13,248 nt of DNA from a virus (taxonomy: Duplodnaviria; Heunggongvirae; Uroviricota; Caudoviricetes). The position numbers were made by a program. The stretch lies in the IMG/VR virus record IMGVR_UViG_2529292873_000008, one strand, 5' to 3'. Below, piece by piece: positions 12,001 through 13,248 of this stretch. The stretch's first letter is position 1, and each line of letters opens with the position of its first letter.

Positions 12001-13248
12001 AGCCTGGGGTCGGTATTAATGTTCTCCACCAGAAGACGCCCCATCGCTTTCACCGGATCGGGAAGACCGTCCTCCATATACTCAATACCAGGAGATATCA
12101 CCACGGGCGGTGGCATCTCCGGATTTGTTTCGTCCGGCTGTGGTATTGCAGCCGCCTCACGGCGACGGGGTTTATCCTCCTGCTCTGATTTTTTCTGCCG
12201 GTAAACAGGAACCTCATCCACCTCCACCGTCTCGCATTGTTTACGGGCTATAAACGCAAGCACCTCCGGATCTTTTGCCAGCTGCGAGCCTTTAACCCTG
12301 GCGGTCTTCGCCGAATAACCGCGGCAAGGGCTGACGCTGTTTTGTTTTTCCCGGACATGAGCGCCAGCGCAAATTTTCGTTTTTGCGTTGTCAGCACAGC
12401 CTCCTCCCGGGTCCAGAACGCACTCAGCCGGGTATGGTTCAGCCCATTTTTCCCGGCGTCTCATGCCGCAAATGTTAACTGCTGCCTGGTTAACATTTGC
12501 TGAAAAAGCCAGTTAACATTTTTTCCGCACAACAAACTGAATAATAAAGATAAAAACCGCAAAAATGCCCGGGCAGCCAGTTAACATGTTAACTGCCCTG
12601 AAACGGGAATTTTTTCTCTGCGTGAGAGGGGGCGCGGTGTCCAGGGCGATCGTTTTTTTCGCCGGATGATCCCCCCCGGGTCTGGTCACAGGCCAGTGAT
12701 TCCGTCGGCCCTGCCATGACCATCAGGAAGCTCAGGCAACGTCGGATCAGGCATACCACTCGCCGCTTCACTCGCTGACTTCTGGCGATGGCATTCAGTA
12801 CAGAGGGTCCAGAGGTTCGTCTCCTCATTACCACCACCGAACTGAAGTGCAATGCGGTGATCGAGTTCACTGTCACAAAGGTCAACCACGCGTCTACAGA
12901 GACAACAGTGTCCGGCATCCCTCCGCCAGATACGACGTTTGAGGGAAACCCGGGCACTGCCACTGACACGACGCTGTTCCCCCCTCAGGACATTTATCCG
13001 CCGGGTGTTCAGAGTTTTGATTCTGCCCGGTAACGTACGAAGCACAGCCATGTAAAATCCTCGCCATATAGCTTGTCACCAGAGGAAAGAAAATGTCATC
13101 GAAAAACCGGACCCGCAGAACCACAATCCGCAATATCCGTTTCCCCAATCACATGATTGAACAGATCAATATCGCCCTTGAACATAAAGGTTCCGGTAAC
13201 TTTTCAGCGTGGGTTATTGAAGCCTGCAGAAGAAGGCTGTCAACAGAG

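Follow-up and report, generated by a model that had tools for sequence, protein, structure and literature searches.

A one-base gap in the terminase small subunit gene of an Escherichia coli O157:H- prophage contig is most likely a consensus error from collapsed repeats

The stretch of DNA analysed here (the window, 13,248 bp) is the whole of draft contig AETZ01000077.1 in assembly GCA_000187325.3 of E. coli O157:H- strain H2687. AETZ00000000 is the record of sorbitol-fermenting O157 strain H2687, which was placed in clonal complex A4 alongside strain 493-89 (PMC3271280). The locus under study is an ordinary HNH-terS-terL packaging module of a lambdoid, Stx-phage-like prophage. Its closest relatives are the Pankowvirus phages 2851 and Stx2a_WGPS6, together with Sakai Sp6, and the gene order YlcI/YnfO, HNH, terS, terL, capsid, portal is common to the window and these relatives. 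The features around terS are as follows.

13051-12686, minus strand: intact HNH endonuclease gene, 121 aa.
12468-12596, both orientations: five GTTAAC-centred repeats (CAGTTAACAT / ATGTTAACTG) in the HNH-terS spacer.
12464-11835, minus strand: annotated CDS (ATG start, 209 aa), the gene call on the source contig, EFX19801.1.
12321-12464, minus strand: out-of-frame 48-codon leader of the annotated CDS, from ATG 12464, with no obvious Shine-Dalgarno sequence upstream.
12400-12407, minus strand: ribosome-binding site GGAGGAGG, identified from the sequence itself, ahead of the GTG start.
11835-12397, minus strand: true terS frame (Terminase_2 family), from GTG 12397, broken by a 1-nt gap after codon 26; 187 aa when repaired.
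12320-12321, minus strand: site of the missing base, where GCCGC is followed directly by GG in the window; nine of the 11 panel copies have GCCGCCGG and two have GCCGCTGG.
10180-11838 (low end approximate), minus strand: terL, with three private 1-nt indels and no gene called on the contig.

The HNH gene, which is annotated in relatives, matches the Pfam HNH family (PF01844) at 27 bits, above the cut-off of 21.4. In these prophages an HNH gene is the usual upstream partner of terS and terL, and in the window it adjoins both, as is characteristic of an HK97-like, HNH-assisted cos packaging module. A spacer of 220 bp separates it from the 209-codon ATG open reading frame (ORF). The GTTAAC repeats in this spacer, which include a perfect 12-nt inverted pair and are conserved in relatives except for one SNP, are plausible candidates for terminase recognition elements near cos. 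At the C-terminus of the HNH protein (12714-12719), the 6-nt sequence TCATGG is the ‘type B’ form known from 493/89 and phage 2851, and the sequence on either side of it is ‘type A’, with 13 differences from type B upstream and 8 downstream; the block could mark gene conversion over a very short tract or be one more trace of a blended consensus.

The deposited protein EFX19801.1 is named ‘PBSX phage terminase small subunit’ for O157:H- str. H 2687, and the 209-aa sequence is recorded on one contig only, AETZ01000077.1. It starts MRRREKWAEPYPAECVLDPGGGCADNAKTKICAGAHVREKQNSVSPCR and continues as GYSAKTARVKGSQL... (GYSAKTARV...), and is a chimera in which 48 out-of-frame residues are joined to TerS residues 27-187. 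A second frame opens at the GTG at 12397-12395, reads VLTTQKRKFALALMSGKNKTASALAA and then VIRRRPPG..., and stops after 49 codons. The first GGAGG of GGAGGAGG lies 5 nt from this GTG. A sequence-only reading of the window had already pointed to this GGAGG and to the TerS-like -1 frame that follows it, and both can be seen in the sequence.

Alignment to relatives revealed that exactly one base is absent from the window, which reads GCCGC-GG against GCCGCCGG or GCCGCTGG. Read on the minus strand, the base lost between 12321 and 12320 is either C or T, corresponding to G or A on the plus strand; the column in which it lies is polymorphic between paralogous prophage copies. In the alignment to TerS homologues, which the sequence-only reading had named as one way to check its proposal, every relative was found to have the extra base (GCCGC[C/T]GG, compared with GCCGCGG in the window). 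When one C was inserted, the result was a 187-aa protein 100% identical to RefSeq WP_000958422.1, the TerS annotated in 493/89 and ECP19-598, implying that the pattern of the frame break is not due to chance. As had been predicted, one added base restores the AGYS-KTA motif (...TASALAAGYSAKTARVKGSQL...). The prediction had put the addition, a G, at 12319-12320; this yields the same protein, and its position was right to within one base, since the gap lies at 12321/12320 and the plus-strand base may be G or A.

The start codon is equally well defined by the relatives. In O157:H7 ECP19-598 and in Stx2a_WGPS6, the homologous gene is annotated as ‘terminase small subunit’, is 564 nt long and begins at the GTG equivalent to 12397 in the window, and the same GTG-start terS annotation is found in MB41-1, 493/89, LSU61, USDA5905, Sakai Sp6, PPyecE_EH1910, JLK-2012, phage 2851 and Stx2_EH2246. 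The GTG at 12397, first put forward as a likely start from the window itself, is thus homologous to the start used in RefSeq/PGAP and phage records. Over 1 kb, the DNA of the window is 99% identical to that of the WP_000958422.1 / YP_009909395.1 TerS group of O157 lambdoid prophages and Stx-converting phages, whose members include Stx2a_WGPS6 (Pankowvirus), the terS of phage 2851 and Sakai Sp6 ECs_1541. The GTG start and the ribosome-binding site are the same in the window and in these relatives; the window differs in being one base short after codon 26, which leaves it with a 49-codon stub and a 209-codon chimeric ORF. Our confidence in this reading of the gene, with a GTG start, one base missing and a 187-aa TerS product, is very high.

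In a Pfam search, the repaired protein, like its homologue, matched Terminase_2 (PF03592) over residues 2-57 (E 5.6e-08, 34 bits; gathering cut-off 26.1 bits), while the same search with the deposited 209-aa ORF and with the 49-aa stub gave no match, because the break splits the domain. The suggestion that the first ~45 annotated codons are out-of-frame junk is borne out by this difference between the deposited ORF and the intact homologue. PF03592 describes SPP1/SF6 G1P-type small terminases, which have an N-terminal helix-turn-helix DNA-binding domain; only profile positions 1-56 of 141 were matched, and the rest of the window TerS is a proline- and lysine-rich region beyond the Terminase_2 model. 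In addition, a search against the sequences of solved structures aligned the AAGYS motif (…ALAAGYSAKTA… after repair) with the G1P DNA-binding domains 4zc3_A (E 0.33) and 2cmp_A (E 0.65), both of them sub-threshold matches. As judged from these alignments, the break would fall inside the N-terminal DNA-binding domain of TerS, and the gene can be assigned to the known Terminase_2 family of TerS proteins, its HNH-terS-terL setting being standard for HK97-like cos phages. At its distal end, the terS stop overlaps the terL start in an ATGA at ~11838-11835, and a 4-nt terS/terL overlap is annotated in relatives.

It could be argued instead that the 209-aa ORF encodes a genuine TerS isoform, alternative or extended, or that ribosomes reach the downstream frame from the GTG frame by programmed frameshifting. 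The frame of ATG 12464 is open for 209 codons in the contig, but it cannot enter TerS in any relative, where the extra base is present. Moreover, its 48-residue leader is without a family match, the chimera loses the match to Terminase_2, and the ATG lacks an obvious Shine-Dalgarno sequence of the kind that the GTG has in GGAGGAGG. No slippery sequence was found at GCC GCG GTT that would favour frameshifting. The leader (MRRREKW...) was seen in no other member read of the EFX19801.1 cluster, so that homologue N-termini in the annotated frame, which would have spoken against the sequence-only reading, were not encountered there. We give these possibilities virtually no credence, and the comparative data rule out both programmed frameshifting and a real long isoform. 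The 48-codon leader arose when the gene caller ran across the frame break.

The 90% protein cluster of EFX19801.1 has 1,300 members, and those read were mostly N-terminally truncated TerS partials from the ends of draft E. coli contigs. Partials starting exactly at AAGYS or AGYS came from 34 and 11 contigs, respectively, indicating that draft contigs often break at the variable site where the window lost its base.

The packaging module is widespread and repeated. The 1,051 bp around terS matched 1,281 of 5,426 complete E. coli genomes and 94 phage records, with best matches at 99.1% identity over 1,054 bp; compared with the whole contig, no copy in a complete genome was above ~98% identity. 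The module is present in multiple copies, at a median of 2 places per genome and at up to 8-10 (complete E. coli genomes / O157), and the several copies in O157 genomes are 94-99% identical to one another. Lambdoid prophages are known break points of O157 draft assemblies (PMC7175801).

Using a 57-nt probe centred on the gap, we found the terS deletion allele of the window in 0 of 763 homologous places in 314 complete E. coli genomes. The best match to the probe was always 57/58 with the extra base, and this included all 4 places in 493/89, which belongs to the same clonal complex. Exact-pattern scans likewise found the allele absent from GTDB species representatives and from IMG/VR. Two of the window's alleles in terL behaved in the same way: that at 11750 was absent from 2,099 places in complete genomes, and that at 10308 from 2,811.

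When the window was compared with 11 full-length real copies for private variants, it was found to carry five strictly private 1-nt indels (one in terS, three in terL and one in the capsid gene), together with two more in variable regions:

12321, minus strand: 1-nt deletion in terS; other copies CC (9) or CT (2), window C.
11750, minus strand: 1-nt deletion in terL; other copies GC, CC or CG, window C.
10564, minus strand: 1-nt insertion in terL; other copies AA (7) or AG (4), window AAG.
10308, minus strand: 1-nt deletion in terL.
8716, minus strand: 1-nt deletion in the prohead protease/major capsid gene; other copies CC, CT or CG, window C.
~5822: 1-nt deletion in the portal repeat.
3747: 1-nt deletion in a T-run.

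The contig thus bears at least four single-base lesions in addition to the terS gap, which accounts for its gene calls: there is none where terL would be expected, and the capsid gene is in pieces. In the ORF list, terL is split across three frames.

The number of these indels is out of keeping with the number of substitutions. In the window, private small indels stand at 5 against 12 private substitutions, compared with 6 against 331 in the 11 real copies taken together, so that the indel-to-substitution ratio of the window is ~20 times that of real copies. Furthermore, six of the seven window-specific 1-nt indels coincide with, or directly adjoin, columns at which the 11 copies differ from one another (binomial P 2e-5 to 2e-3, for a variable-column background of 12% per column and 27% within one column). 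Read alongside the alleles of the other copies, the window looks like a blend of them. The seventh indel, at 10308, is not at a site that varies in the 11-copy panel or in complete genomes.

A cluster of private changes surrounds this exception. Within 10274-10640, a ~370-bp segment in the 3' part of terL, we observed 5 of the 12 private substitutions and 2 of the private indels, and none of 2,811 homologous places in complete genomes matched a 77-bp stretch around 10308 in full (best 96.2%). Sequence of locally low quality could explain the cluster, as could a copy found only in H2687.

Two further regions of the contig show frame problems of their own. The base lost at ~5822 borders a tandem repeat of 159 bp within the portal gene; the extra repeat unit of the window is common, among the 11 copies compared, to the LSU61 copy only. 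Three independent closed O157/O55 genomes (ECP19-598, LSU61 and USDA5905) carry the portal gene of this prophage family with a ‘frameshifted’ annotation, and in several phage records it appears as two CDSs; the frameshift annotations point to recurrent frame problems, real or technical, in the repeat region. In the tape-measure gene, at ~516, the window has a 7-bp deletion (GCAGGCG) relative to 10 of the 11 copies. The deletion is common to the 493/89 prophage, whose tape-measure gene is annotated as a frameshifted pseudogene, and it has the appearance of a true allele of the sorbitol-fermenting O157 lineage.

These observations bear on the possibility that the frameshift in terS is genuine, and that the window represents one decaying H2687 prophage with 1-nt indels in terS, terL, capsid and portal. 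Were this so, terS would be a pseudogene and the prophage would be unable to package DNA. Defective lambdoid prophages whose morphogenesis genes are frameshifted are common in O157, and real copies do carry occasional frameshifts, as in the portal genes and the tape-measure gene described above. The 7-bp deletion that the window has in common with 493/89, taken with the portal frameshifts, shows that this prophage lineage is already partly defective, and selection on it may already be relaxed. In addition, neither the indel at 10308 nor the five private substitutions within 10274-10640 lie at known variable sites or are explained by known paralogue variants, which speaks against an artefact. 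Decay in a real prophage is for these reasons a live rival. Nevertheless, it would have to produce five private frameshifting indels alongside only 12 private substitutions, at the raised ratio given above, and to place six of seven indels on paralogue-variable columns, where they resemble allele blends. It would also have to do so in a copy that has no counterpart above ~98% identity in a complete genome, and with alleles (the terS gap, 11750 and 10308 being those tested) that occur in none of the 5,426 complete genomes, 493/89 included. We consequently judge genuine decay to be unlikely, though worth keeping in mind.

The explanation we favour, and consider very probable, is that the missing base is a consensus error arising from collapsed prophage repeats rather than a mutation. 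We infer that the cause was repeat collapse during assembly: reads from near-identical prophage copies would have been merged by the draft assembler into one repeat contig and, where the copies differ (CC or CT in the case of terS), the merged consensus would have dropped or doubled a base. Because the base is missing from the deposited sequence, the gene caller took the upstream ATG at 12464, in the downstream frame, and so produced the 209-aa chimera. The 2011 assembly of H2687 was presumably made with 454/Newbler. With this technology, the averaged flow signals of CC and CT reads can give a single C. The window shares with collapsed-repeat consensus errors in O157 draft prophages a repeat-only contig, private 1-nt indels at paralogue-variable columns, and gene calls that are fragmented or missing; it differs from them in the 10308 indel, which is not at a known variable site.

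The identity of the flanking sequence also changes across terS. Upstream of the gap, the window matches type-A copies at 378/379 positions and one of the four 493/89 places (L006) at 370/379, while the 570 bp after the gap are identical to L006 (570/570), a copy that overall is ~96-98% identical to the window. The copy type would thus appear to change at the terS gap, as read from few informative sites, and this favours an artefact. The minimum number of donor switches required to build the window as a mosaic of segments from the 11 real copies was 56, within the range of 5-84 for the real copies themselves, and did not discriminate between them; nor was the number of indels in donor-switch intervals significant (1-2 of 5, where ~10% would be expected).

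Given that most of the indels coincide with paralogue-variable sites, it is also conceivable that all five are real and arose in one H2687 prophage at just such sites. Gene conversion between prophages could, for instance, have left mismatched heteroduplex DNA whose repair was error-prone. If true, redundant prophage packaging genes would have a route to rapid and targeted pseudogenisation, but we consider this very improbable.

Taken together, these data describe a gene that is already known. They add no new biology, and the frame break is most likely not a biological feature. EFX19801.1 is a mis-annotated chimera; its record calls either for correction to a 187-aa TerS with the GTG start or for a flag marking it as frameshifted or of low quality. 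If taken at face value, the draft contig would wrongly score the packaging genes of sorbitol-fermenting O157:H- as defective, making it unfit for judging the integrity of the prophage. More generally, frame breaks on repeat contigs tend to fall on paralogue-variable sites, and this provides a useful way to recognise such artefacts.
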